A stretch of DNA of 63,085 bases, the filler included, from Diploschistes diacapsis (Eukaryota), in assembly GCA_023645945.1 (NCBI GenBank). It is 5 parts of 5 records of this genome, joined end to end, with 100 filler letters (N's around TTAATTAATTAA, not from the genome) between each part and the next. Parts side by side here need not be neighbours in the genome. Positions count along the whole stretch, not along the records: positions 50,573 to 63,085 come from JALAIB010000732.1; 4 more parts are not named here. One strand, written 5' to 3'. The number at the start of each line of letters is the position of its first letter. The stretch's first letter is position 1. The translations under genes were made by a program, and so were the position numbers. Under the pieces are notes generated by a model. It saw only the letters and a list, made by a program, of their open reading frames with translations, ran no database searches and was not told the origin of the DNA. Of the stretch, positions 12,554 to 63,085 are shown one piece after another.

Positions 12554-12653
12554 NNNNNNNNNNNNNNNNNNNNNNNNNNNNNNNNNNNNNNNNNNNNTTA
12601 ATTAATTAANNNNNNNNNNNNNNNNNNNNNNNNNNNNNNNNNNNNNNNNNNNN
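12554..12653. other. Artificial contig linker
   Basis: 44 N + TTAATTAATTAA (stops in all six frames) + 44 N. Confidence 0.99.
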
Positions 12654-25202: not shown

Positions 25203-25302
25203 NNNNNNNNNNNNNNNNNNNNNNNNNNNNNNNNNNNNNNNNNNNNTTAATTAATTAANNNNNNNNNNNNNNNNNNNNNNNNNNNNNNNNNNNNNNNNNN
25301 NN
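25203..25302. other. Artificial contig linker
   Basis: 44 N + TTAATTAATTAA + 44 N. Confidence 0.99.
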
Positions 25303-37849: not shown

Positions 37850-37949
37850 NNNNNNNNNNNNNNNNNNNNNNNNNNNNNNNNNNNNNNNNNNNNTTAATTA
37901 ATTAANNNNNNNNNNNNNNNNNNNNNNNNNNNNNNNNNNNNNNNNNNNN
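37850..37949. other. Artificial contig linker
   Basis: 44 N + TTAATTAATTAA + 44 N. Confidence 0.99.
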
Positions 37950-47404: not shown

Positions 47405-49740
47405 TCATTGACTGACCGGGAGATGGTTCCTGCCCTCGCTCGTAGCTGCTGCAACAAGGACGTCGAGGCCGCTTGTGTCCTCTTTCTGCGCCGGTTGCCT
47501 CGGGCGGAGGAACCCTTGCGGTGATGCCGGAAACGCGCTGTAAATATTCTTCTGTGGTGGTGCTGGGAAGGCTTCGTAGATGCTTTCAAGGGGCAGCTTC
47601 TGATATTGGTCAGCGGAGCTTGCGTGTTCATTCCCAGTAGACCTTACGGCAGAAGGGGCAGAAGACCCTGTCGCATGTGCCTCGGCATTACCACCAGCGT
47701 GGACCACGGTCGGCTGATATTCCAAGGCAGTAGCCGCAGGTGTCCGAATGCCTTCGCTGCTGCTAGAATCCTCGGGCGACCGACGGCGCGAGGGTACCGA
47801 GCGCTGAGAAGCTAGAGCAGCGCCATTGTACCATCCTTGTCGCCTGGCGCGTGGTGGTGGAACAGGAGGTGGAATCGAAGGCGCTGCCAACGAAGGTTGT
47901 GGAAATTGGTCGATCTCGCTCAGACCTTGCTGGGACTCTTGCGGCACGGGATGTGATGCATGCGTGGGCCGCGGTGGTTGATTTGGTAAAGTTTGGGAGG
48001 AGGATGGCGCAGGGTTTTCGGTCTCGGAATTGGTCGATTGACTCCACTTGGTAGACTCCCGAGGTGGAGTTCCACCGGCGATCTCCAGCTTAGTCAAGTT
48101 TTGGTGGAGCGACAAGTCCCAAGAGGTGCGGCCACGCCGTTCCCTAGGGTGGGGAATGTTTCGATCGGAAGAAGAGGAGAACAAGGCCGGTCGGCCCGAC
48201 ATGTCCGCTTGTCGGCTGACGGCCTGACGAGGCGGTGTTGCTGGACGCTGAGATATTTGATCGAAGGTCTCGAAGCCCGGTAATCTTGGAGTATGACCCG
48301 CAGCAGTATAGGCCTGTGGAGCGAAGGCGGGTCGTGGCGCGTCGGGAGTTTGAGAGTAGCTTAGACCGCTGGTTGCTGGTCTCTGCTGGTTGCAGTTTGA
48401 GTATGTTGTCGGGTGCCAGGTTCTTCGTCGCCAGTCTGCTTCAGCAGCAACGTCGTTCCGAGCAAGGGAGTAGTTGGAGGACGTTGGGCTTGCGAGGGTA
48501 CTGTTGTTAGTAGATGTCTGAGACGAGTTCGATGGCGTTGACGGGTTCATGTACGAGGGCCCCTGAACGGTGCTCGGAGTCTGGAAAGGGTTGATTCCAG
48601 AAGGGACGGATAGTCTACGACCCACGGCTCTATCTGCCCATGACCCTGCGTTCCGTGAGATGGAGATAGGCGAGCCGAGAGTGGACCCAAATGGGCTGCT
48701 TGGAGTGTTGGTGTAGACATAGGAGGTAGGCGTGCTGGCTCCACTGGGAGACCGATGATAACCGGCAAGGGCGTTTTGTGGAGACGCCCTAAATGTATCA
48801 ATGGTCAAGCCGCCCCGTGGGCTTTGTCTGTCCGAGAGGTTCAGCGAGTGGGGTCGCGCATTTTCCCGGGCGAAATCGGACATGGTGGAAATGGTAGACG
48901 TAGTGGAGGCGACGGAGCCAATGCTGGACGTCGAGAGGTTCCGCGCATGACCTCGATGGTGAGGGCCCTGGCTTCCGCCCGTGGATGCGCGAGATCTTGC
49001 GCCGGGGGGCCGAACACGATCAGTACGAATCTGGCGTTGGAAACGAGTGCCCGTGGCTGCCAAGGAATCACCAGGAATATCTTCGTTGACATGAACGGTC
49101 TGAGCATGTTGACGAAGATTGTCCAGTCTCGAGAACCTTCTTGCGCAATGGCATTGGAAGGGTCGTTCTCCAGTGTGCTTTCTGAGGTGGTGTTAATGCA
49201 ACGTAATGTAATACGCTGGCTGTTTACACACGGACAGACTGACCTTATATGCCGAGCCAAATGCTCGCTCCTGGTAAAGCTCAAGCTGCACGGAGGATAC
49301 TCTGTACAGAAGAACCGTTGGCCCTTTTTCTTCTTTTTGGATGGTCTTTCAGATGACTCGTCATTACTGTCGTTGTCCGAAGCATCCTCCCCTTCATCCG
49401 AACCGATATCGGCCATGTCCACCTCTTGCGTGTTTGATGAGTTGTTGGAGACTAGAGAATCGTGACGCCTTAGACCCATGATTTCTTCCTGACTTGTCTG
49501 TCGCTGGACATCCAAGCCAGTCGATGATTCTGTGAGGCTTCTTTTGCCGTTTGCCGCTGCGAAGCTGTCTCTTGTTGGGGTTGCCGTGCCATTCTCCTCG
49601 GGAAAGTGAGGAGGCTGGGGGGGCGGCGGCAACTGCTGGAACGTTGCCCGAGGAGTCGTCGAGGCTCCCAACAGTGTTGCATCAGCGTGACGATCTCTTG
49701 TGCCAATCGGGCTCATCCTGATGGGCTGAAGAGCTGTCAT
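47405..49740 (-). CDS. nsdC: C2H2 transcription factor, NsdC/Usv1-like
   Basis: [85 protein letters not shown]. Confidence 0.8.
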
Positions 49741-50472
49741 TGCCACGGCTTGGTATTGTTACCTGCTCTTGCGCCAGATGGTCGTGGCCAAAAACTATTC
49801 TTCTCCAATATAAAGTCGTACCCAGGGTTGATATTGACTTCGGCTTGATATGCGAAAGGCTGAAGAAGGATTTACAGGGTGGTTACTCTGCCAGCTCAAC
49901 GGCATTTGGGTTTAGGAGTATCGGAACGAAGGTTTCAGTGTTGTCAAGGAAGCTGCTGAATCAGAGGCGCGATATCGAGGATGGGAAGGCAAGTCAAGTC
50001 GCAACGAATCCACAAGAGACGCTTAGGCTTAGGCGGTAGTGTATAACGAAGAATAGGTCGTTCTAGGCGAAGTCGCGTAGGAAATGATGGGTTGCTGCTT
50101 ATTCCCGATCGAGGTGGGACCAACAGACTCACAGATAAGGCCCCCCGGGTTATTTAGAGGCCACTTAGGGCGGAATCGGTTATTAATTATAGTTAGGTAG
50201 TCGAAGATGTCGAAAGCGAATTACTAGTCATGCATCGCAAAGATGGGGGGTACTCGAGCCGTGAGTGGACAGCTAGCAGTTACCAATTAGAAGCTAGTGG
50301 CCATGAAGAAGATGATGACGATGGCAAATGTAGGGAAGCTGTTGATAGGGAAATCGAGAACAGAAAAAAATAGACTGGGCGCAAGTTGTTTTGTCCTAGA
50401 GGGGTGAGAGCGAGAGAGAGAGAGAGTGAGAGTTCGGTTGATGAATAGGTGGGGGAGTAGTCGGGGTGGGGG

Positions 50473-50572
50473 NNNNNNNNNNNNNNNNNNNNNNNNNNNN
50501 NNNNNNNNNNNNNNNNTTAATTAATTAANNNNNNNNNNNNNNNNNNNNNNNNNNNNNNNNNNNNNNNNNNNN
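50473..50572. other. Artificial contig linker
   Basis: 44 N + TTAATTAATTAA + 44 N. Confidence 0.99.
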
Positions 50573-50743
50573 TAGCTTTAATATTTTCCAAAAAAAACAG
50601 TAGAATAAATATTCATCTTATTATAGAAAGCTTGAATATTTTTTTAGATTTTTAAAAGGCTTATGGGTGGTATAATAGCTCTATGAAATAGACGCATTTT
50701 GGTGTAATTTGGGGGAGGGTCCATTACTTTTGGCATAGTACTG
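50573..50743. mobile_element. Terminal fragment of a Tc1/mariner-like transposon (AT-rich, possibly RIP-mutated)
   Basis: Reverse complement reads TA|CAGTACTATGCCAAAAGTAATGGACCCTCCCCC, a Tc1-type CAGT...AAAAGT terminus next to TA. The partner TIR is beyond the contig edge. Confidence 0.55.
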
Positions 50744-51030
50744 TATAACGTAATCTAACACCTAATGCCGAATCCCACGTAATTGCTACTGTGAGATAGC
50801 TCTATCTCTTGAGTTGAGGCCAAATCGTGCCCTTTGCAACTTTGAACAACCTTTTACTACATTCGTAAATTCAGCATGTTCAAATGATTGGCTAACCTCC
50901 TCAACATCCTAGAAAGGAAAGATGTCAGCACTTATTCATTCAGTGATACAGCATCTATCACACAAGTGCTAGGTAGATTGGCTCTCAGTGACTAACTCCC
51001 AGCTCTCCATGTGTTGACGAGAGCGTCAAA

Positions 51031-53607
51031 ATGGAAGTCAAAGAAGATCACTTCGTTCGAGTGATCACAGCTTTAGATTCAGAGCATGCTGTTGATGTTG
51101 GCAGACACCTTGTCAATCAGTTTAAGCCTGATGATCCTGGGAGGATCGCCAGAGCGAACACAATTGCAACCTATTTCGGAGAAGCATACAGACGAACCGG
51201 AAAGATCTGTTTCCTTGATGAAGCTACTGCCTTATCAAGAGAAGCGCTCGCAGCCTCGTCTATCAGCCATCCTTCCAGGGCCACGCTTCTAAGTAACCTG
51301 GCTGGTCATCTCGGAAGACGCTATGAGAAATACAAGAGGATGGCAGATTTAGAAGAAGGTCTCAAGCTCCTTCTTACCGCCGCCCAACATGACGAAAACG
51401 CACCTCATCGCGATGCTGTTCTCAATAATCTCGCCAATAAATACGTGAAGCTTTATGACAGGACGAAGGCTACCAAACATCTACACGAGGCTATCAGCAT
51501 TGCGCGAGAGTTATGTAATTTAGCTTCGAATGATGAATCTCGAGAAGCCCTGTATCTGAATTCTCTCGCCAACTGGCTCCGCATCCTCTTTAGCGAATCA
51601 GCAGATGAGGAAGATCTTGTAGCATCTATTCGGACTCACGAAAAAGCTCTGTCTAAGACGTCTGAAACGAACCCTTACTTCCCCGACCTTCTACACAATC
51701 TTGCTTTGAGCTTTTCTGACCTATATTCTTTGACTAATAACATAGAATGTATCGATCGAGCCGCTCAACATTCCAAGGAGGCATTGAAGCATTGCTCATC
51801 AGGCAATCCTCATCAAGCCGACTACCGTATTGCATTGGGTAATTCATTTCGGCTCCAATATTTCTTCAAAGGAAAACAGAGCGATCTTGATGCTGCTATG
51901 GCTCAGTTCAAGTCCGCGCTTGGTCTTGTGAACACGCCCATAAAATCCCGTATCTTAGCAGGAAGGTATCTCGCGCTTTGCGAACTCGGTGCTAGCAACT
52001 GGTCGGCTGCTTACACAGTATCAGCTGCGACCCTGGACCTCGTTCCTCTGCTTACCGCGGAGTCGTTTGAGATCTCAGACAAGCAGCACATACTTAGCGA
52101 GATTACAGGGTTAGCTTCTGATGCCGCTGCGACAGCCTTGATCTCCAAACAAAATCCATTCTATGCTGTCAGAATGCTAGAAATGGGTCGCAGTGTGCTT
52201 TTGAAATCTCAACAAGACTTGAGATCGGACCTCTCTAAACTGGAGAAAAAGCATTCTGATCTTGCCGAAGAGTACGAGAATCTGCGAGACGAACTCAGAG
52301 TACCAGTCAAGGATAATGCTGGTAACTCAACAACAGACGAGCACGATCAGGAAATCAGATTTCAGAGACAAGATACGTACCAGAAATTCCAGCGGTTATT
52401 GCCCATCATACGGGCCCAGCCTGGATTTGAGGACTTTCTGCAACCGCTTTCGGAAGAGCAAGCGCGACAGGCCGCTGTCAACGGTCCTATAGTAGTACTC
52501 AATGCCAGTGTCTATCGTTATGATGCTATAATCATTGAAACTCATCGGATCCGAGCCGTTGACCTTCCTGGGCTAGACCAATCAAAGACACAAGAGATGA
52601 TCCAAAAGCTTGCAACTCATTTAGGGGAGGTTCTCGAATGGCTCTGGAATATAGTCGCTAAGCCTGTATTGAGTGCTCTGGATCTGGCTCAAAATGTCTC
52701 TGATCTCTCAAAAGCGCCTCACATATGGTGGATTCCGACGGGAGCTATAAGCAGGTTTCCCATTCATGCCGCGGGCTGTCACGCCGCTTCATCAGGCCAG
52801 ACAGTAATGGACAGAGCAATCTCTTCCTACAGCGTCTCCCTTACAGCTCTGCTAAATAGTCGCTCTGCGAAACCTCCAGCACATGCACCACAGTCAGCTC
52901 TTCTTGTTTCAATGCGAAGCACTCCTATGCAGTCCGAGCTCCCAAATGCTAAGGCGGAGATCGAACAGATCGAAAAGTTTTGTAATTCGGCTTCTATCAC
53001 ATGTCTTCAGCCTACACCAGAAAAACAAGCTATTCTTGCTAACCTTCCCGCTTGTCAAATTTTTCATTTCGCCGGCCACGGTTTAGCATCCAAGAAAGAT
53101 CCGCTGCAAAGTTCTCTTTTGCTTCAGGACTGGCAGTCCGACAGGCTTACCGTGTTAGATATCATCCAAACTGATTTATATGCCTCTCGCCCCTTTCTTG
53201 CCTTCTTATCAGCATGCGGGACAGGAGAGGTTCGAGACCATAGCCTACTCGATGAAAATATTCATTTAATCAGTGCTTTTCAATCAGCTGGCTTTCGTCA
53301 TGCTATTGGAACACTTTGGAGGGTAGATGACGAAGCCGGTATGGAGATCGCTGATACGGTCTACAAAGAAATGATAGATGAAAAGTGGAGTGAGTCATCG
53401 GTGTGTATAGGGCTGCATCGCGCAATCAAGGGAATGAGGGACCGATGGGTGAATGACCGAAAAGAAAGCAAAACTGCACTGCGCAAGATCTCCAGAAGGA
53501 TGGATTTGTCTGACGATGATGATGATGATGATGATGATGATGAAGAAACAGGCGCTCTCGACTATAAAGCATTATTTTGGGTACCGTACGTTCATTTTGG
53601 GGTTTGA
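51031..53607 (+). CDS. TPR-repeat + CHAT domain caspase-family protease (858 aa; short upstream exon possible)
   Basis: Helical repeats (LSNLAGHLGRRY, LNNLANKY, LNSLANWL, LHNLALSF), LEMGR, IRAQPGFEDFL, LEWLWNIVAKPVL, IWWIPTG, PIHAAG, catalytic FHFAGHG (53062-53082) and FLSAC (Cys 53215-53217), AGFRHAIGTLW, WVPYVHFGV. Confidence 0.95.
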   Translation: MEVKEDHFVRVITALDSEHAVDVGRHLVNQFKPDDPGRIARANTIATYFGEAYRRTGKICFLDEATALSREALAASSISHPSRATLLSNLAGHLGRRYEKYKRMADLEEGLKLLLTAAQHDENAPHRDAVLNNLANKYVKLYDRTKATKHLHEAISIARELCNLASNDESREALYLNSLANWLRILFSESADEEDLVASIRTHEKALSKTSETNPYFPDLLHNLALSFSDLYSLTNNIECIDRAAQHSKEALKHCSSGNPHQADYRIALGNSFRLQYFFKGKQSDLDAAMAQFKSALGLVNTPIKSRILAGRYLALCELGASNWSAAYTVSAATLDLVPLLTAESFEISDKQHILSEITGLASDAAATALISKQNPFYAVRMLEMGRSVLLKSQQDLRSDLSKLEKKHSDLAEEYENLRDELRVPVKDNAGNSTTDEHDQEIRFQRQDTYQKFQRLLPIIRAQPGFEDFLQPLSEEQARQAAVNGPIVVLNASVYRYDAIIIETHRIRAVDLPGLDQSKTQEMIQKLATHLGEVLEWLWNIVAKPVLSALDLAQNVSDLSKAPHIWWIPTGAISRFPIHAAGCHAASSGQTVMDRAISSYSVSLTALLNSRSAKPPAHAPQSALLVSMRSTPMQSELPNAKAEIEQIEKFCNSASITCLQPTPEKQAILANLPACQIFHFAGHGLASKKDPLQSSLLLQDWQSDRLTVLDIIQTDLYASRPFLAFLSACGTGEVRDHSLLDENIHLISAFQSAGFRHAIGTLWRVDDEAGMEIADTVYKEMIDEKWSESSVCIGLHRAIKGMRDRWVNDRKESKTALRKISRRMDLSDDDDDDDDDDEETGALDYKALFWVPYVHFGV

Positions 53608-53774
53608 CTATCACTTTTAGGGTTCTACTACATTCACAGACTTGTAGGGTAATACTATCTGGTCAAATACTGGATCGGTCTGGTTTCCTATTCCAGAGAT
53701 AAGCTGGGTAGTTTTTGCACTACACTGGTACTTTGGGGTATTGTGGATATAATTTTAGAGTGGATCATGACCCA

Positions 53775-55949
53775 TTATGTTTTGCCATTCTTCTTAGGTA
53801 CAATACGAACTGTGAAACTTTGGTAAGCCCATCTAACAGGTTTTTGATCGCCCCTCAGCTGCGTGTCGCCGAAGCTCTCTGAGCCTAAAGGCGCAAAATC
53901 TGAGTCATTTGGATCTCTACTAGCATCTACCAGATCCCAAAGTTCGGGCAGCTCCATTGTGGATGTACCGCGGATTGGACGGTTACTAATGACAAACTTT
54001 AGCACGTCTTCAATCTGCACGCCTTCGTCTACCTTCATCCTCTCGGGCAAATTTGCCGAAGGCCGAAAAGAAACAGTTCCAGACGGCTTCAATTCTCTAG
54101 CTTTTACGCTTGGAAGCACATCCGCTAGATCTCTTGGTAGGACTGCTTGACACTCCTTGTGGGCTGGGTAGAGCTTCTTGATCTTATAAAGCGGCGTCAG
54201 ATTCAGGACGGTGAAATAGAGGATGTCGTGTGTATGATTTCTGAACTCGACTGAGATCTTCGATCCATCTGTAACTTCAATGCAGCCATCTTGAAGTACG
54301 ATAGTAGGATCGTTTTTGACTTGTGCGTGAATGGCAAATTCACTCTCACGCAGTGAGTTAGCTTTCTTGTTATCCAGAGTTTGAATGAACGCAAACTTTG
54401 CCAAATGCTCGAGCATTGTTAGAAGGATTTTTTTTGTATCGCCGTTTAATAATTTAAGGCTTGGAAGGTTGGGAACCTCCTTCTGTGAGTCATGAATCTT
54501 ATATTGTTGGTTTTTGTTGGCCCTTACCAGGAAGTGCGGATGATCGATTGGTGCTACATCTTTTAGTGAAAGCGGTCGAAGCCAAATGCTCTGATTGAGC
54601 ATCCGATCCAATTCTTCGTCTCCTTCAAAAAGGTACTTCACATAAGCCCGAGGCTGAGCTAATGCTTCAAGTGTAGCGAAAGAGCCCACTTGGATCGGTT
54701 GTCGTGCCTGTTCTAAATGTCCTGTCAAGACTGATTCTGCCACAGACTGTACAGCTTGAACATCTGTGACCACAACTCGACTTCTTCCCTCTTCCGCTCC
54801 CCCTGGCAAATGAACATCATATTCATCCCCAGTGTTGACTCCCTGAACGAGTCCTGCATTCAGCCATATCTGTCCACTCTCACCCACCTTTACCACCTCG
54901 CAATCAGCCTCAACGCCTTTGCCCTGAACCACATCGTCACCTATGAAGATCGTCTCTTTCACACCGATTAGAACAGGACTCTGCCCAACAACCGTAGTAT
55001 ACATCTTGGAGGCAACCCTCCTGTAGATCACATCACATGAAACGTTTTCAATCCCTTTCCTCAGACAAAAATCCAGCGCCTCAAGCACATGATACGACAG
55101 CGCCCCATTCCACTGTTCCCCACCGAGATCCAGCTCTCTTGCAACCTCGTGCGGTCCACAAGCCGTCAGCAGTCCATAGCCCCGTGGGTTTAAAAGCCAA
55201 TGGCTCCGGACATGCGCATCTCGAAATACCCTGTCTTTGACCTTCTTCTTTCGTTCCCTATCCTCCTTTGCCGCATTCTCCATCTCCCTTTGCAGCTCAT
55301 ACAGCAAGGGGAATTCTTTGCCCGCGACTTCGTCCCATGGTATACCACGCACAGTTCCTGGCGCGGCGTCCGTGCGTGACACGCTGCCGGAGTGGCATGA
55401 GTCTAGCACGACGATCACGCGCAGCTGTTTTTGCACGAGAGAGTCTAGGAGCAGCGCTAGCTCGATGCCGTGTAGATACCGGACGCTTAGTTGTTGCTGC
55501 TGCTGCTGCTGCGGATCTGCTGTGGCAAAAGAAGAAGAAGAAGAAGAAGGTGGTGGTGGTGGTTCGAGCAGCACCAGCGCAGCATCGGTGTCATAGTGCT
55601 CCGCATAGGGCAGACTAGAGTGCTGAGTCGGCCGGATAGCACCATGGCCCGAGTAGTGCACGTAGACTATATCGTCGGGGCTTGCAGCTTTCTCAATGTG
55701 ACGGAATGCGGCGGTGATGTTGGCGAAGGTGGGCCACTGGGCGCGTGGCGTTGTTAAGGTTGTTGGTGGTTGTGTTTGGTGGGAGGGATTGGAGGGATTC
55801 TGGGCGGAAAATTTGAGGGTTGTGATGGAGTGGAAGTGGGATTGGAGGTAGAGCTCGATATCGTCGATGTCGTTTATGGCACCTCGGAGACAGTGGGACG
55901 GGTTAGGATAGAAGTTGATGCCTATGAGGAGAAGCCAGGTGTGTGGCAT
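53775..55949 (-). CDS. Caspase-like peptidase C14 with long C-terminal extension (724 aa, single ORF)
   Basis: LLLIGINFY, LRGAINDI, PTFANI, HYSGHG (55641-55658), LDSCHSG (55386-55403), LTACGPHEVARE, GALSY, QSP. C-terminal LNAGLVQGV and FRNHTHDILYFTVLNLTPLYKIKKLYP segments. Confidence 0.93.
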   Translation of the reverse strand: MPHTWLLLIGINFYPNPSHCLRGAINDIDDIELYLQSHFHSITTLKFSAQNPSNPSHQTQPPTTLTTPRAQWPTFANITAAFRHIEKAASPDDIVYVHYSGHGAIRPTQHSSLPYAEHYDTDAALVLLEPPPPPSSSSSSFATADPQQQQQQQLSVRYLHGIELALLLDSLVQKQLRVIVVLDSCHSGSVSRTDAAPGTVRGIPWDEVAGKEFPLLYELQREMENAAKEDRERKKKVKDRVFRDAHVRSHWLLNPRGYGLLTACGPHEVARELDLGGEQWNGALSYHVLEALDFCLRKGIENVSCDVIYRRVASKMYTTVVGQSPVLIGVKETIFIGDDVVQGKGVEADCEVVKVGESGQIWLNAGLVQGVNTGDEYDVHLPGGAEEGRSRVVVTDVQAVQSVAESVLTGHLEQARQPIQVGSFATLEALAQPRAYVKYLFEGDEELDRMLNQSIWLRPLSLKDVAPIDHPHFLVRANKNQQYKIHDSQKEVPNLPSLKLLNGDTKKILLTMLEHLAKFAFIQTLDNKKANSLRESEFAIHAQVKNDPTIVLQDGCIEVTDGSKISVEFRNHTHDILYFTVLNLTPLYKIKKLYPAHKECQAVLPRDLADVLPSVKARELKPSGTVSFRPSANLPERMKVDEGVQIEDVLKFVISNRPIRGTSTMELPELWDLVDASRDPNDSDFAPLGSESFGDTQLRGDQKPVRWAYQSFTVRIVPKKNGKT

Positions 55950-56309
55950 TTCGAAGAAAGGGGGGCTTGTGATGCCTAGAGTGTTATTGGTGTTGGCAAC
56001 AAGCGATCAAATACCCGACGAGATATAGAAGTTGGGATTAAGGAATTTGTTAACAGCTGTGCGATGGAGCAGATGAAACAGCAACCGAGTAGCCTTTTTT
56101 CGGCTATGTAGCACTATTATGTATTGATTCTTGTCTACGCTATGGCTATAGAAGGAAAATGTGAGCGTGGTTCTAGATTATGGACATGGCATTCGTTGCT
56201 TTCAGAGTCATTAGAGCGTAACTTCGTAATCGTCCCAAGCCTACAAATATAGCCTACTAGGTAGTCTCAGCCTCCTTCTCAATCCACTATTTCTCCGTCC
56301 GATATCATT

Positions 56310-56679
56310 TCATCCATCAGCAGTCCTCTCAAGCCTCGTTTCTTCAAACTCAGCACCTTCGTCTACCATTGTCCCGTCAGCGGCACACAGCGTATATCTG
56401 ACCGGCACAACAGTTGCATTGACGCCTGCAATAATGAACGGGCCTCTGCGGGCGCCGATGCCAGCCTTGATGTAGATTTTGTCATCACTCCTATGGAATT
56501 GTGGTTCTTGTGAGCCTTGCGTGTAGTAGGGACGCTCGCCAGAGACTTTGAAGGATTCGGTATCGAAGTTGTGACTAATTGAAGGCAAGCAGAAGAATTA
56601 GTAACAAAAAGTGGATGAGGGATTTGGCAAAAGAAAGACGCTGTGACACAGAAGAGTAGAAGGACGCGCACCGTGACAT
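56310..56679 (-). CDS. Small (~90 aa) protein, predicted beta-barrel/SH3-like; 2 exons
   Basis: 8-nt exon ATGTCACG (56679-56672) + intron GTGCGC..CTAAT..TAG (56671-56575) + exon 2 gives MSRHNFDTESFKVSGERPYYTQG...FHRSDDKIYIKAGIGARRGPFIIAGV...YTLCAADG..EFEETRLE. Confidence 0.75.
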
Positions 56680-57609
56680 AGCTATGAGAAAGGTCCTGTA
56701 AATTGGGTATCGGGCACCACGACCCTGGCAACCACGGGTTGAGGGGAGTCTGCTTTAGTATAGCGTGATGGTAGACGGACGTAGCATCCAGACAGGAGCT
56801 CACCCGAAATGATGTGAGAGCAAAGAATGAAAATTTTTGAAAGAAGCTTATGCGTTCTTTGTGAGGCAGCAGAGACAAGGCTGCGTAAGGCAAGTGTTCC
56901 ATGACGGTGTTGCGGACTTGTCAGTTCGAGTCAGTCTGACGATGCAGCGGTCAGACGCGCTAAGTGCCCAGAAACTGTATGTAGATCGAGGGAGCGACTG
57001 CAACGAGCCCATATACGAGATAGATGACCTTGATCAATCCAGGAGTCTTTTCCTGTCAATTGTCAAGAATTGGTCAAGGGACTACAATAGTGAGATAAGC
57101 CTGAGAAGAGGAAAAACAACGGTTTTTGGAGATATCGTTCTGTATTTACGTCACATCCGCTTTGATTTGTTCTAATATTATTTCTTATTCACCGTCTACT
57201 CGAGCACACATGCAGATCACGTTAGTGCTCCCATTCAGATTCTGTCATGTGTGAAAGATCTGGAAATGGTTCAGGCTACTTTTGCACTATCGTACACGAT
57301 TTTCCACTTGCATGCCCTGATAACTAGCCTTCCACTAGGAAGAGGAACAGCTACCGTAATCCGCAACAGGATGCTGCTATGACCTTGCGCGAACTGGCAC
57401 ACATAGAGTTTCGTAAAGATGTTGGACGCCAGTGGCAGGGGATGAACACACACTTATTTGTGTAGGCACAATATATATAGCTAGAGAGGCGTCTTCTACA
57501 AAATTTTACTGCAAATGCCTAGAGGAAACAAACGCTGTAGCTCCTACCAACCTATTATTGGGATCAAAGTCACGCAAAAACGCCTACAGGTCGAGAGAAA
57601 TTCAGCCAG

Positions 57610-58717
57610 ATGATGACTAACAGAGCACAAGAAACAAGTACCCAGGATTCCAAACCCCCCTGCAAATAGCAAAGGATGTTAACCCATGATGAGCAGTTGA
57701 GCGCTCACCTCCGGGATATCCCCAGTTTTCCGCGCTCATAGGAGTCCATCCGGCATTCAGCGTGTCAGCTCGATTCCCCGTCGCTCGTGCGCGGCTTCTA
57801 CTGCGGAAGCAGCAACGCGCGTTAGTGCTGGAAAAGAGGCTCGAGGAGTTAGATCTTCAAGAGCAGAAGCCTCTCTACCTAGGAAGCTTCGAGTCCGACA
57901 GGAATGAGGCTAGGATTCAGGTTCTGGGGGAGCTTGATGAAGCCTTGAAAGATTATGGTTAGTAAAATGGCAGCGCCTAGCAGTGAAGATGGGCAATCTT
58001 CATTGAGTCAAGGACGACGGACTGTTCGGTAGATATAGAGGCGCTGACAGTAATTTTGACACATAGATGACCTACTGCAGCGGAGCGTGGCGGTCTTACA
58101 CCTGCCCCGAGCGCCGCAGAGGAGCATCGATAGTCTTGTGAACTGGATCAAAGGGACAGGAAGCATCTCCCGCAAGGAAGCTAACTTTCTGGAAAGATTA
58201 GATCTCTGTATACTCGGCGGTTCCGAAGGACCGACCCCAGCATGGATAGAATCGTGCATCGAACGCATCATTATTTCCGTGCAGCAGCGCTTCAAAGTCC
58301 GTACACACATTTTTCGAATACATAAGAAAGCTGAACGCTTGTCTAGATTTCGGCAGCTGGCCCATCTCGACAGCAACGGGTTTTCATCTTTGAAGGGCCT
58401 GCCTTCCGCATCATTGCGCATTCCTGTATCACCGTCATTGTGGTTATGTTGTTGCTTATTCCCGTGGCTATCCTTCGTTCGACATCCAGCGCTATACAAC
58501 AAATGGTATGCATCACGCTGACCTCAGTGTTGTTCACCATCGTTCTTTCTGGATCAATGAATGCAAGACCGGGAGAGATCTTTGGTGCTAGCGCTACGCA
58601 AGTCTTCCCGAACAACCTTTCATCTTCAATGCTGATCCTGGTTGTAGTTATGTTGCCTTGTTGGTTATCTTCCTCACCTCACAGCCTTCGGGTCAGGCAA
58701 CACAAACAAAATATTGA
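57610..58717 (+). CDS. DUF6594-like membrane protein (5 exons; ~3 C-terminal TM helices)
   Basis: Spliced ERSPPGYPQFSALIG..RARLLLRKQ..LEKRLEELD..DRNEARIQVLGELDEALKDYDDLL..SLVNWI..EANFL..DL, then TM segments ending EIFGASATYVALLVIFL. Last intron is GC-AG (58598-58647). Confidence 0.85.
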
Positions 58718-58791
58718 TCTTCAGTGAATGGTTCTAGCCTCGCTTTCGTCAGAAACGCCGTTCAGCGCTGAGAAGAGTGAACCGATAGACT

Positions 58792-61700
58792 CTAAGCGCC
58801 ATAATGAATATAGGGCACCCAAAGAAAATTAGTTTCGTGTTCCATGCCTCCATCACTATCGTCATCGTCATCTGTTAACGTTAAATCTCTCCCCTTGCGG
58901 TTTACGCCATCGATGACCGTAGGCGTTGAGGCTGCCTTTTCCGTTTCCACGCCCTCCTTCAGAATAGATTCGTCTCTGAGCGTCCGCAATGCGCAGTGTA
59001 ATCCTAGCGCGACTGCGGTATCAGTCAAGCCTTTCTCGCAAAGCGTTTGATACAGAATACTCGCTACTTTGACACATTGTTGGTCAGCAACCTCCCACAG
59101 TGTCCCGATCACATGCCGGAATCCAGCCAGCTGGCAAGCCGCGACAAGGTTTAAGCCTTCGTCATACAGCTTTTCCTCCTCGCTAGCACTAGTAAAACAA
59201 GCAGAAAGGTAAGCAAGAAAAGGCGAATTCTTGTATAGTCGGAGGTCACGTAAATGTCCTACTGTTAAGGGGCTTCTTTCCCAGTCCTCAAGGAGTAAAC
59301 TGCTCTTAGATGGCTCAATCATGTCAGTGCGTCCATGACCAGCAAAATGAAATATTTCAGACGTCTTCATAAGGTCGAGAACCTTTTCTCGACTCTGTTG
59401 CTGTGGCCTTATTGGATGTAGCTTCAAAGATCCACAGAGAGTTTGAACCTCGTCAATCTCTTCCTTTGCATACTGTAGGGCGGGCGGATCACCGGGCGTT
59501 ATAGGCATAGCTACCAAAAGCGCATTTTCCAGGCGAGAATCTCTTTTGAGTCTAGTGCTATGCCCATGCTTGCGACCATGGATCAGTGATTTGACTGTTA
59601 AGCTGTACGAGGAGATCACTCGATCGAGTACAGTATTCCCAAGCCTTTCCATATGGCGCCCAGCTGCATGTAACGGTAAACGGCTGATCAAACCTGTTGG
59701 AATCCACCGAACATGAGGCCACTCATCGCCTGTGATTGGATGATCAAAACCCAGTGCATGAAGACATGGTTCTGCAATATCTTCCCAAAGCCATTCCAAT
59801 AAAGAAATCATACTCAAAAGATCCTTTGCCGAGTGCAGCTGCCGAACATGCATACTGACTTCTTCAGCGGTAAGACTAGAGAGTTTGAGTACCCTGATCT
59901 GGTGGGTTTCGATTAGGATTGCATCACAACGGAAGTCATCGACATTGATAATGATAATCGGACCTGGTTTGGCAGCGTCCTTAAGATCGATTTCGCTTGG
60001 TGGCAAAAGGAATCTGGATAAACCCGGCTGAGCACGTATCTCGTCAATGACTTCATTGAACCTCTGGTCGGCATCGCGGCGCTTTTTCCCTTTTAATTCA
60101 TCCGCTAGTACATTGGAGGAATCGTACTGATTAGCAGCAATAGTGTCCGCTGGCTGATCTAGCTCATCTCGAAGCGAGACAAATTCAGCAGCTAATAAGT
60201 CAGGACAAACACCCTCAAGCTGTAGGGCATCTTCTCGTAGGTCCATTAAGAAGCTTGCAATGACACCACGTCCCAGTTCTAGGAGGCTGAGAACTTCGTA
60301 AGGGTTTCTATCCTCTTTTGTCCGCAAACCATAGGCTGCAGCGCGGGAGGCTAAACCAGAATATGATTTCAGCATGTCTTGTTTGTAAATATGCCTCACC
60401 CATCGTGGGCTTGCAACTGGGAGAAGATTCACAGCCTCTTCAAGACATGCACTCGAGCCTTCCCAGTCTTCTTCTAAATCCAAGAGATATGTTACTGTCT
60501 CCGCAGCAAAGATTCTCTTGGAAGGCTGAGCATTGCTAAAATCCCACTGCTCTTTCAAAATTTGAAGATAAGGCTTGACTTCGAGCAAAGATTGGGTCTT
60601 CTGGCATCTGAGCGAAAGCGCTGATGCAAACTCGGTGAATGCTTGGAGTTTTCTTGAGTGATTTGCTTCTGTGTTTGTAAGCACGGCGTAGGCTATTGTT
60701 ATCGCACGGTCGCTGTTCTCTGCTAAGCCTGTCGCACGGTAACGATCGTTCAGGAAAGCTCCCTTCAATCCTTCTCTCCGCATTCGGTCTGGGTCTCCCT
60801 GGGGCGTAGATTGTATCGCTTCTTCCATAGTCTGAATTGCACGATCGATATCTTCGAGCGATCCTGTCTTAGAAAATCGAGTCGAAAGAGCTTTTCCTAA
60901 GGAAGCTAGCCACATAGGTCGGCCATAATATTCGAGAGGAAGAGATTGAATAATTTCTCTTAGAGTCTCTATGCTATGACTTCCGGCCTCGATGGACCGG
61001 TCGCGTGCCAACTTGTAAACAGATATCAGTGCATGACCTTTTTGCTGGGATAGCTGGTATGAAGAATGGATCGTTGTTGCTGCGACTCCTTGGGTAGCAA
61101 TTTCAATGGCATGCTCGAGATCTTCAATAGATCGAGTCTTTTGCCAGCGTGCAGCAAGAATACCTCCTAAGAGATGGAGCTGAGATGCCCGATCAAAATG
61201 ATCTGGAGGTGTAAGCTTTAATGCCTCACTGCAGAGCTCCGCACTCTGATTCCGATCTTCCAAGGAATCAAATTGTTCAGATCGAGTAAAGAGGTCCTTG
61301 CTAAGATTTTTTAAAAATGGACCGCGATCTGGGTGATTTAGCGGTATCAACTTCAGATTTTCGTTCGTCATTTCAATTGAACGCTGAAGATCTTCGATCG
61401 ATCCACTGCATTTATACCTGTCTGAAAGCGCGCCTCCAACGTTGCTCAACAAACCTAATCTGCGGACATCTTCTGGAGCAGCTCGATTAAGCGCTTCGAA
61501 TTGAAGATCAATGGAGCGATTGAGATCGTGTATAGAACTAGTCTGATGGTATCGATTCCAGAGGTTAAGCCCGAGTCTGGAGAGCCTGACTGGATTGCTG
61601 GGCTCGTTCGAAGACATTTGCAAGGCTTTAGTGCCAATAAGTATAGCGTAGTCGAGATCTTCTAAAAATCCCGTCTGCTCAGCTTGAACGCTAAGTAAGA

Positions 61701-62597
61701 AGTGGAATATTTTAAGAGATTGAATTCGCTGTGCATCATCTTCCTTAGCGATCAACAAGAGCGCCTCTTTTAAAACATCAACGCCACGCTGCAAATCGGC
61801 TAGTGACCCTAAATGTTCAAATCGTAGGCCAAGGCCGTAGCCAAACGTGGTCAAAAGGTCAGCTTTAGGATTGCAAGGATCCATAATTCTCTCAAGCACT
61901 TCAACAGCACTACCAATATCTTGCACGGACCTTGTTTCGTTGTAACGGCTCATGAGAAAGGAGCTCAAGATATTGGAAAATATCGCACGGTGAGCTTGGT
62001 CCTGACTGATCTCAACTCCTTGGCCAACGAACGTAATGGCACTGTCAAGATCTAGCATTGAGCCATTTTGTCTGAACCTGTGGAAGAGAATCTGGCCATG
62101 GCTCGTAAAATGCGTTGCTTGTGCATTCTGCTCAATACTTTCTCGGATTGCACTAGCAGCAGGAGGTCCCTCAGGTCGTTTTCCCAGTATTGCTGACAAC
62201 ACGCTCTGTAGAGTCGGGACCCAATACTGACACGTTGCTGCTGCATGTAGAGCGTGCTCATAAATGCGAACGACTTCGTCTAGTCTCTGGATGTCGTTAT
62301 TTGATTCATATTTTTCTGAAGCTTGCATGGCTATCCGCGTGATAACATAAGGCGAGAGGCCTTCTAGGGTCGGCCGTAGCTCAAGGAGTCGATATAAGAC
62401 TGCTTTCAAAGTCTGCTGACGTTTATCTGGTCAGAGACTTGGGCAACGGGTCTTGATGCCCAGTACTCTGCTCGTATGAATATTTGCTCATGATAGGGAA
62501 TGGAGTTCAAGTATCTTAGTGCAAAGCACCAAACATATATATCAATGACGCCAAGTACTTTGGGGGACTCACTCGCAAGCCGATGGAAGAGATCCAT
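58792..62597 (-). CDS. Second, longer TPR-repeat + CHAT domain protease (~1200 aa; 5' exon structure uncertain)
   Basis: Open frame 58792-62409 with many L..RY...GS..DL..AI repeats, LELGRG, IRAQPGLSRFL, LEWLWEDIAEPCL, WIPTG, LPLHAAG, catalytic FHFAGHG (59332-59352) and YLSAC (~59197), AGFRHVIGTLW, WVPYIHYGA. Nearest upstream ATG is 62597 in another frame, with a GTGAGT donor. Confidence 0.93.
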
Positions 62598-62699
62598 CGT
62601 GGGATGTTTAAGCTCTAGGAATGAAGTTCCACAGCAAAGACAGGGCGATTCGGGAGCACCATCTGCTCCCTACCCCGGTCACATATAGTGTGTCTATCA

Positions 62700-63085
62700 A
62701 GCTGTTTAGCTCATATCTAGTTCCGATAGTAATTAATATAAATTATATATATGTAAAGGATAAAATGCAGTAGTGTGATAGTAATGGTCATAGTTGTTAT
62801 GATCTCTATCTCTATAAGGTAGACACAAGGTATAGATCAAGGTGGGTTTGGTCTCGTTTAGAAGAGGAATGCAAGCAGGAGAAGAAGGTAAAGCAGTTAT
62901 AGGTCAGATTATTTCTGGAAAGGAGTCTTTCTGATAATAGAAGTAACGAATATAAATTAATCCCGAGTAATAACTTAAGATGTCTATAAAAGTGAACACG
63001 TCTTAAACTCGAAAAGACTATAGCGACGTTTTTATATAATTTAAATTAATAATTAATTATCGACAGTAAGTTGTTATAATAACGT
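62700..63085. repeat. AT/TpA-rich degenerate repeat-like flank at the contig end
   Basis: Abrupt shift to AT-rich, TA-rich sequence with no ORF; ends in ...TAACGT. Confidence 0.4.

Follow-up and report, generated by a model that had tools for sequence, protein, structure and literature searches.

What could hold three cysteine proteases of clan CD together in a fungal genome, with only a small protein and a membrane protein between them? The question is raised by a stretch of 63,085 nucleotides from Diploschistes diacapsis (GCA_023645945.1), joined from five parts and called the window at its full length in the following. In the part that comes from JALAIB010000732.1 (positions 50,573-63,085) lies an island of five intact genes, which encode two TPR-CHAT proteases (CHAT1 and CHAT2), a Peptidase_C14 caspase, a protein of 90 amino acids that we call MINI, and a DUF6594 membrane protein. 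The His/Cys dyads of all three proteases could be read from the translations. Our analyses showed that this neighbourhood is not due to chance. A cluster of the four families, with one or two TPR-CHAT genes, a two-domain caspase, MINI and DUF6594, is conserved in ascomycetes and is very probably a functional unit of some kind. By analogy to bacterial systems, a sensor-triggered TPR-CHAT protease might activate the caspase, and the cluster would then be a protease switch of two tiers that serves regulated cell death or a non-self response, a reading to which we give an even chance. The island is composed as follows:

51031-53607, plus strand: CHAT1, 858 amino acids in a single open frame (Pfam CHAT, E=7.5e-36).
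53775-55949, minus strand: caspase-like protease, 724 amino acids (Pfam Peptidase_C14, E=2.1e-11).
56310-56679, minus strand: MINI, 90 amino acids in a two-exon model, with a 66% identical annotated protein (P0040).
56680-57609, no strand: MINI/DUF6594 intergenic region, 930 bp, with bounds taken from the two gene models.
57610-58717, plus strand: DUF6594 membrane protein, 279 amino acids in a five-exon model (Pfam PF20237 on three exons).
58792-62328, minus strand: CHAT2, 1178 amino acids in an open frame (Pfam CHAT, E=1.1e-27; TPR_10, E=2.7e-7).

CHAT1 and the caspase gene converge, with the end of CHAT1 facing the caspase 3' end at a distance of 167 bp, and DUF6594 and CHAT2 converge with a gap of 74 bp. 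Upstream of the caspase gene, at 360 bp and on the same strand, lies MINI, which is divergent from DUF6594 with a spacing of 930 bp, presumably a shared promoter region. With gaps of these sizes there is therefore no room for a further gene inside the island. A sequence-only reading of this DNA had described five genes with three clan-CD proteases and intact dyads, in these two convergent pairs and one divergent pair; Pfam and the translations confirmed the former, and the coordinates of our gene models agree with the latter. One of its statements had to be given up. The island had been drawn up to 62597, where we found a separate frame of 63 amino acids with no in-frame splice to CHAT2, whose supported start is 62328. 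The symmetric layout that it described is not conserved; gene order and orientation vary between loci.

Whether the genes co-localise in other genomes more often than by chance had been proposed as a test, and it came out positive in 20 non-redundant fungal loci. Public metagenomes were scanned with the caspase alignment A1 as anchor and with 10-kb flanks; 600 stretches matched and 376 of them could be confirmed, from which we took the best 80 as loci, cited here by their L numbers. Searches with tblastn and the five window proteins placed relatives of CHAT, DUF6594 and MINI next to the caspase gene in many of them. Profiles were then made from the window and these matches in two rounds and all frames were scanned, which yielded MINI in 13, DUF6594 in 11 and CHAT in 41 of the 80 loci, hosts of all kinds included. 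The non-redundant fungal set of 20 loci provides 232 kb of flanking DNA; it excludes the near-duplicates L003 and L055 (of L004), L024 (of L023) and L069 (of L072) as well as L047, which was short and unclassifiable. Here, MINI was found in 12/20 loci, CHAT in 11/20 and DUF6594 in 9/20, the last count falling to 8/19 without L044, which was too short for the caspase tree and was counted as fungal as a DUF6594 carrier. All four families occur together in 6/20 loci (L021, L023, L042, L060, L068 and L072) and in the window, and absences on short contigs are uninformative.

The distances within these loci are short. In flanks of up to 10 kb, no MINI gene is farther than 1.7 kb from a caspase gene (gap 51-1687 bp), and no DUF6594 gene farther than 1.75 kb. 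For uniform placement in the surveyed flanks, a baseline other than random fungal DNA, the joint probability of this proximity is 10^-5.7 for MINI and 10^-3.9 for DUF6594, in loci that share ancestry and hence do not count as fully independent. DUF6594(-) MINI(+) caspase(+) is the order in the window, L021, L042, L067 and L068, and caspase(+) MINI(-) DUF6594(+) that in L018 and L060; the divergent MINI/DUF6594 pairing of the window is present in all six of these other loci. The caspases of the fungal loci are only 24-40% identical to that of the window, and linkage that is kept despite rearrangement and such divergence argues for selection on the cluster. Annotated genomes point the same way, with MMC30_007663 (MINI) and MMC30_007664 (caspase) of Trapelia coarctata on the same 144,019-bp contig and ACLMJK_009400 (DUF6594) and ACLMJK_009402 (caspase) of Lecanora helva on the same 519,368-bp contig, where we infer adjacency from the locus-tag numbers. 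The closest relatives of the window caspase are proteins of lichen-forming ascomycetes, namely of Trapelia coarctata (53% identical), Varicellaria and Lecanora, and the window genes contain introns, both of which mark the DNA as eukaryotic.

Clustering of all frames of at least 50 amino acids from 23 fungal-type loci and the window revealed no fifth conserved family beyond the four; the other shared frames are, by their coordinates, antisense inside these same gene families. No gasdermin was among the shared families of this set, with the window ending at 63085 and no gasdermin profile run on every small frame. This agrees with the earlier proposal of a module independent of gasdermin. In L023 (2969-4756) and L072 (14862-16379) we observed an additional caspase gene of this family, and in L041 and L072 two CHAT genes; the cluster thus expands by duplicating its protease members. 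L004 contained TPR repeats only, at the contig end.

Is the pairing of a caspase with a CHAT protease confined to fungi? In named prokaryote genomes, the same caspase query led to 360 confirmed stretches; retaining the 80 best of them left 79 loci (L081-L159). Hosts are mostly filamentous cyanobacteria, Chloroflexota, Acidobacteriota, Myxococcota and Planctomycetota. Both collections combined contain 134 prokaryote-type loci, with a few duplicates between them. In an unrooted FastTree tree of 163 caspase sequences, midpoint-rooted for drawing, the 134 prokaryote rows form a clade with support 99 that holds all 79 named loci and the matching unnamed metagenome loci; outside it stand the window, six named fungal proteins and 22 metagenome loci. 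The prokaryote relatives match the caspase from residue 2 to about 600-720 of 724 with 24-32% identity, from which it follows that the long C-terminal extension is common to both kingdoms. At their N-terminus the longest possible extension is shorter than 20 residues in 108 of 133 sequences; hence they are probably cytoplasmic.

CHAT-type matches, complete or partial, occurred in 40 of the 79 named prokaryote loci. Among all 134 loci, 68 had such a match within 10 kb; in 55 of them the nearest one shared the strand of the caspase, and in 41 it lay no more than 1 kb away. Pfam detected CHAT in at least 11 of 15 neighbouring prokaryote frames, and at least six of these 15 showed the fungal TPR-CHAT architecture (L094, L114, L118, L125, L157 and L159). 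For L084, L104, L115 and L132, CHAT was not among the matches listed (best 25 families); L084 and L104 had nSTAND1 and WD40 repeats. A profile scan found MINI and DUF6594 in 0/79 named prokaryote loci. As judged from these sequences, the standalone two-domain caspase beside a sensor-CHAT protein is a prokaryote arrangement common to fungi, to which MINI and DUF6594 are fungal additions. The bacterial CHAT/caspase precedent that the sequence-only reading had invoked thus fits, as caspase and CHAT-type protease are neighbours in bacteria, too.

Other genes accompany the prokaryote caspases. In cyanobacterial relatives, the caspase gene often follows, on the same strand, one or two genes for a phage-type lysozyme with a peptidoglycan-binding domain, in many cases with gaps of about 150 bp; this was seen in 28/134 loci, with examples of lysozyme or hydrolase frames among L019-L154 at L048:120-1034:+ and L144:17084-18571:+. 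The cyanobacterial caspase and envelope-lytic genes look like an operon. An LCAT/PGAP1-like alpha/beta hydrolase gene flanks the caspase gene on the same strand in 15/134 prokaryote loci.

The caspase itself consists of a metacaspase-like p20/p10 part (about residues 1-330) followed by a conserved extension of about 390 amino acids without Pfam family. It scores 44.4 bits with PF00656 (cut-off 21.4), and its p20 part matches solved metacaspases in a PDB sequence search, best 6w8s with E=2.5e-18, over profile positions 4-176 only. In contrast to the canonical layout of type I and II metacaspases, with prodomain, p20, linker and p10, the protein adds the conserved C-terminal region. The dyad His102/Cys185 is invariant in 29/29 fungal and 134/134 prokaryote relatives, i.e., in all 163 aligned sequences. 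Together with it, Arg201, Cys264, Gly282, Gln323, Pro325 and Gly329 are invariant in fungi and prokaryotes, and Arg192 and Glu268 show little or no variation in either kingdom. The NCBIfam model 'caspase, EACC1-associated type' gave 23.8 bits at a cut-off of 140. With PADLOC, the generic 'caspase' model alone matched among the island proteins (1.2e-22), and CHAT2, MINI and DUF6594 were without match.

Two low-complexity inserts interrupt the window caspase, a Pro/Ser/Gln-rich one (window 55440-55520, residues ~129-155) and a Lys/Arg/Glu-rich one (55240-55290, residues ~227-240). Both are specific to this copy and missing from 19/19 aligned relatives, and the second sits in the variable linker between the invariant residues Arg201 and Arg243. 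An Atlas feature search suggested DUF4384 for the C-terminal region with scores of 0.95 and 0.93; Pfam detected DUF4384 in 0/12 family members (E <= 0.01), and this lead stayed unconfirmed.

Both CHAT proteins are clear members of PF12770, a clan CD family, with 124.5 bits for CHAT1 and 97.7 bits for CHAT2 at a cut-off of 24. TPR-type repeats precede the CHAT domain in both. In CHAT1, the repeats are N-terminal, with a weak Pfam match to TPR_10, and the CHAT domain is C-terminal (residues 533-856). The dyads are His683/Cys729 in CHAT1 and His998/Cys1044 in CHAT2, and they stand in the G-H-G (His) and S-A-C (Cys) motifs found in both proteins, which we take to be the catalytic motifs of CHAT proteases. 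As the two are only 30% identical across 926 residues, they are old paralogues rather than the result of a recent duplication. Full-length relatives of CHAT1, 29-39% identical, adjoin caspase genes in other loci, and a search of PDB sequences with CHAT1 gave no match. An Asp run lies just ahead of the final conserved strand in CHAT1 (window 53490-53530) and CHAT2 (58850-58890). In CHAT genes of other fungal loci, this C-terminal loop differs in both length and sequence and lacks a conserved Asp run.

The MINI gene has two exons, 56679-56672 and 56574-56310 (stop included), separated by a 97-bp GT-AG intron. Its splice model is supported by the annotated Trapelia protein P0040 (88 amino acids, 66% identical), which begins with the same residues, and on this sequence comparison we regard the 90-residue gene as real. 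A profile of 13 MINI sequences detected 417 representative proteins at E <= 0.001; 112 of them remained at E <= 1e-10. Among the best 150 of these 417, almost all have 45-150 amino acids, with the domain at the C-terminal end. None of the 13 small members reached a Pfam gathering cut-off, and P0056 alone gave a faint match to Y4YQ_C (E=0.093, 13 bits, cut-off 27). An AlphaFold2 model from the 112-sequence alignment (pLDDT, the predicted local distance difference test, 78.6) has a disordered N-terminus and five strands that form a small beta-barrel at about residues 33-83 of the 87-residue exon-2 model. Foldseek returned no match to this model at E <= 0.001. The weak top rows, none of them significant, were Tudor, chromo-barrel, integrase C-terminal and R67 dihydrofolate reductase folds, with target-normalised template modelling scores up to 0.73. 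An SH3/Tudor-like barrel is hence a reasonable but not proven description of the model; the SH3-like protein proposed before agrees with this five-stranded model, for which no fold match was significant.

The database protein P0100 (858 amino acids) combines a MINI domain (residues 11-67) with CHAT2-like TPR repeats, and a CHAT domain was not found in it by Pfam. P0100 could be a true fusion of MINI with TPR sensors or an artefact of merged gene models, and it serves as a lead only.

For the DUF6594 gene, splicing is predicted with exons at 57610-57637, 57697-57957, 58067-58296, 58347-58597 and 58648-58717. Three exon-sized frames on the plus strand (57.6-58.7 kb) match consecutive parts of PF20237 with E values of 4e-11, 1e-6 and 1e-8, i.e., 43.6, 29.0 and 35.9 bits for single exon pieces against a whole-protein cut-off of 30, and the closest full-length homologues carry PF20237. 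The last intron (58598-58647) has a GC-AG border. Its position and the resulting C-terminus fit the full-length Hypoxylon homologue P0192, and the same position, after a conserved G-A-T, recurs in L021, L023, L042, L067 and L072. The caspase-linked DUF6594 copies make up a well-conserved subfamily that has motifs and intron positions in common. Hydropathy indicates three C-terminal hydrophobic helices at about residues 193-215, 222-243 and 249-268, and an AlphaFold2 model of P0192 (pLDDT 73.6) is all-helical, with a long hairpin at 57-135 and three C-terminal helices; the N-terminal part is predicted to be helical and cytosolic. DUF6594 as a membrane protein is thus supported. For the membrane effector that the sequence-only reading had seen in it, a likeness to a known pore former was not detectable, and its role as a death effector is what we infer.

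Which known systems resemble the island? Craspase, in which the TPR-CHAT protease Csx29 forms a triggered protease switch with Csx30, has the TPR-CHAT protease in common with it, whereas the island is without Cas7-11, RNA guide and Csx30-like gene. The CHAT domains of CHAT1 and CHAT2 scored 45.7 and 37.2 bits with the NCBIfam Csx29 model NF041237, far below its cut-off of 300, and hence they are not Csx29 orthologues. Closer at hand, as far as covered in the consulted part of the report, a TPR-CHAT protein of Podospora anserina (Q2L-6) processes the clustered gasdermin Q1-6 (PMC8851545, Clave et al. 2022). Like Q2L-6/Q1-6 and het-Q2-like/het-Q1, the island has proteins of about 1000 amino acids with N-terminal TPR and C-terminal CHAT, clustered with a presumed target, and some het-Q2-like/het-Q1 clusters in the same part of that report contain two protease genes, as the island contains two CHAT genes (PMC8851545). 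In contrast to the Podospora pairs, and to clusters with a TPR-CHAT or S8 protease gene less than 10 kb from a gasdermin gene, there is no gasdermin gene in the island, and the partners are a second clan-CD protease, the caspase, together with MINI and DUF6594.

The nearest counterpart is the type III-B CRISPR-CBASS hybrid (CBASS, cyclic oligonucleotide-based antiphage signalling system) of Haliangium ochraceum. According to the portion of the preprint available to us, SAVED-CHAT cleaves and thereby activates PCaspase, which cuts many proteins with an abortive phenotype and is inhibited by the small protein PCi (Steens et al., 10.1101/2023.06.23.546230). As described there, a sensor-CHAT protein likewise stands beside a free-standing Peptidase_C14 caspase and small accessory proteins (10.1101/2023.06.23.546230). 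The island differs in that its sensor is a TPR array, SAVED not being reported in Pfam scans of the window proteins (TPR and CHAT only), that its host is eukaryotic, with no CRISPR or cyclase context, and that the membrane protein DUF6594 takes the place of a sigma factor and a kinase. We also looked for a link of the present caspase family to SAVED loci in Myxococcota, the phylum of L132. Of 301 sampled genomes, 26 contained SAVED; in the five with long SAVED frames, the caspase profile matched nothing at E <= 1e-15, and no locus was shared. In bacteria, small pore formers are also commonly unleashed by proteases from neighbouring genes, e.g., in EACC1 and Pepco systems, as stated in the part of the work at hand (10.1101/2025.11.14.688446). 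Compared with EACC1 systems, the island caspase falls far below the score of the EACC1-associated type, as given above, and the sequence and fold searches made here brought up no likeness of DUF6594 or MINI to EACC1 or Pepco.

From these comparisons, a two-tier protease switch could work in the following way. Binding of a ligand or protein to the TPR array would release the CHAT protease, which, as in the bacterial SAVED-CHAT/PCaspase pair, might cut and activate the caspase zymogen. Because the caspase is metacaspase-like, it is probably specific for basic residues and may act as a broad executioner. MINI, almost always the immediate neighbour of the caspase gene, would most likely be a caspase-bound regulator or adaptor, and DUF6594 would most likely be a membrane-resident target, effector or anchor. 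A further step is more tentative and rather doubtful: ascomycetes could have kept, or acquired from bacteria, an initiator/executioner cascade from CHAT to caspase, to which they would have added MINI barrel regulators and DUF6594 as a protease-gated membrane effector that replaces gasdermin.

Several observations weigh against such a switch. The long-flank fungal loci L002, L005 and L018 showed no CHAT within 10 kb, and L005 and L066 contain the caspase alone; the caspase can hence exist without linked CHAT, and a strict linear cascade is not obligatory. Of the module from CHAT to caspase that had been proposed earlier, the conserved linkage remains. The linkage counts carry the reservations given with them, i.e., the uniform baseline, the shared ancestry of the loci and the assignment of L044. 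Among the prokaryote loci, only 24 have a near-full-length CHAT match and about two thirds of the CHAT matches are partial; four of them overlap the caspase open reading frame itself, and in L090 and L092 they are short CHAT/caspase-like heads on nSTAND1/WD40 proteins. Moreover, the island was likened to SAVED-CHAT/PCaspase by gene arrangement and logic, not by caspase sequence, and MINI, in its model, is a beta-barrel unlike the CI-2-type inhibitor PCi. For DUF6594, VIA-align comparison of the homologue model with 48,161 chains found generic helical hairpins only (best Z 8.0, the background level for helical models), and an Atlas structure search returned its own family only, with nothing by features once PF20237 was excluded.

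The alternative that survives best is a functional unit without linear cascade, in which caspase and MINI form the core, for example a latent protease with its chaperone, inhibitor or substrate adaptor, and TPR-CHAT proteins are optional parallel sensors that act on DUF6594. MINI is the most constant and closest neighbour of the caspase gene in the fungal set, and the two parts can be found separately, with MINI and caspase in the absence of CHAT within 10 kb in L002 and L018, and CHAT and caspase without MINI in L041, L051 and L080. Parallel action of CHAT would also correspond to the sole fungal precedent, a TPR-CHAT protein acting directly on the membrane effector gasdermin, in the part of the source considered (PMC8851545). 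P0100 would fit with its MINI domain joined to CHAT2-like TPR repeats; however, this is one protein only, and a gene-model fusion may explain it. Furthermore, prokaryotes have the caspase and the CHAT-type protease without MINI or DUF6594, which points to a direct caspase/CHAT relationship. Overall, we find this alternative unlikely.

Regulated proteolysis unrelated to death or immunity, e.g., processing or quality control of DUF6594, or a developmental or stress role, appears to us decidedly unlikely. Such roles are known for some metacaspases and for the cyanobacterial CHAT protein HetF, and near-identical repeats are typical of rapidly diversifying fungal receptors. The catalytic part of the island caspase is most like metacaspases, the island lies among housekeeping-type genes, and its TPR repeats are not near-identical, since self-comparison of the arrays showed repeats 22-30% identical to each other. 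Nevertheless, a repeat sensor joined to CHAT, variable gene content and order, and multiple paralogous sensors in one locus fit fungal and bacterial death and defence clusters as presented in the consulted parts of two reviews (PMC12881547, PMC10197012), and characterised bacterial standalone caspases of this kind, as far as the sources at hand describe them, kill or arrest the cell.

That the genes are chance or hitch-hiking neighbours from expanded families in an accessory region is highly improbable: DUF6594 and TPR-CHAT are indeed multi-copy in ascomycetes, and the proximity baseline does not come from random fungal DNA, but the linkage recurs with strongly diverged caspases and in different gene orders, every MINI or DUF6594 copy in the surveyed flanks lies close to a caspase gene, and the profiles match nothing outside the island in the window at E <= 0.001.

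If the more tentative initiator/executioner reading, with MINI and DUF6594 as additions, is true, it would be the first caspase-type cascade of two tiers outside animals and bacteria and would provide the first function for the large fungal family DUF6594. Current accounts of regulated cell death in fungi invoke NLR/amyloid-HeLo pathways and protease-gasdermin pairs, and, to our knowledge, fungal metacaspases are without a defined upstream activator. TPR-CHAT and the standalone caspase are a concrete candidate for an upstream/downstream pair of a fungal caspase-type protease. As the same pair is linked in bacteria, it bears on older, prokaryote-derived counterparts of animal initiator/executioner logic in other eukaryotes. 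The cluster also gives genomic context to two families of no known function, DUF6594 and MINI, the latter with its 417 representative clusters. In the literature as far as covered, including the topics of DUF6594 and fungal PCaspase, we found no description of this cluster, the supplementary datasets of Clave et al. on CHAT neighbours being outside this coverage. Reviews of fungal cell death, a 2026 review among them, mention CHAT only with gasdermins in their consulted parts (PMC12881547, PMC10197012).

The remaining approximately 50 kb of the window contain ordinary housekeeping-type genes (kinase, CRAL/TRIO, MitMem_reg, oxidoreductase, CID, HOOK, P450 and SpoU). The one weaker profile match in the window (E=0.056) lies inside CHAT1. 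At 47405-49760, a G+C-rich region (0.55) has long open frames of 595, 305 and 268 amino acids that overlap each other on the two strands, without Pfam family. Furthermore, eight runs of exactly 44 N each are present at 12554-12653, 25203-25302, 37850-37949 and 50473-50572, paired with 12 bases between them and about 12.65 kb apart; this regular spacing points to masking rather than to assembly gaps.

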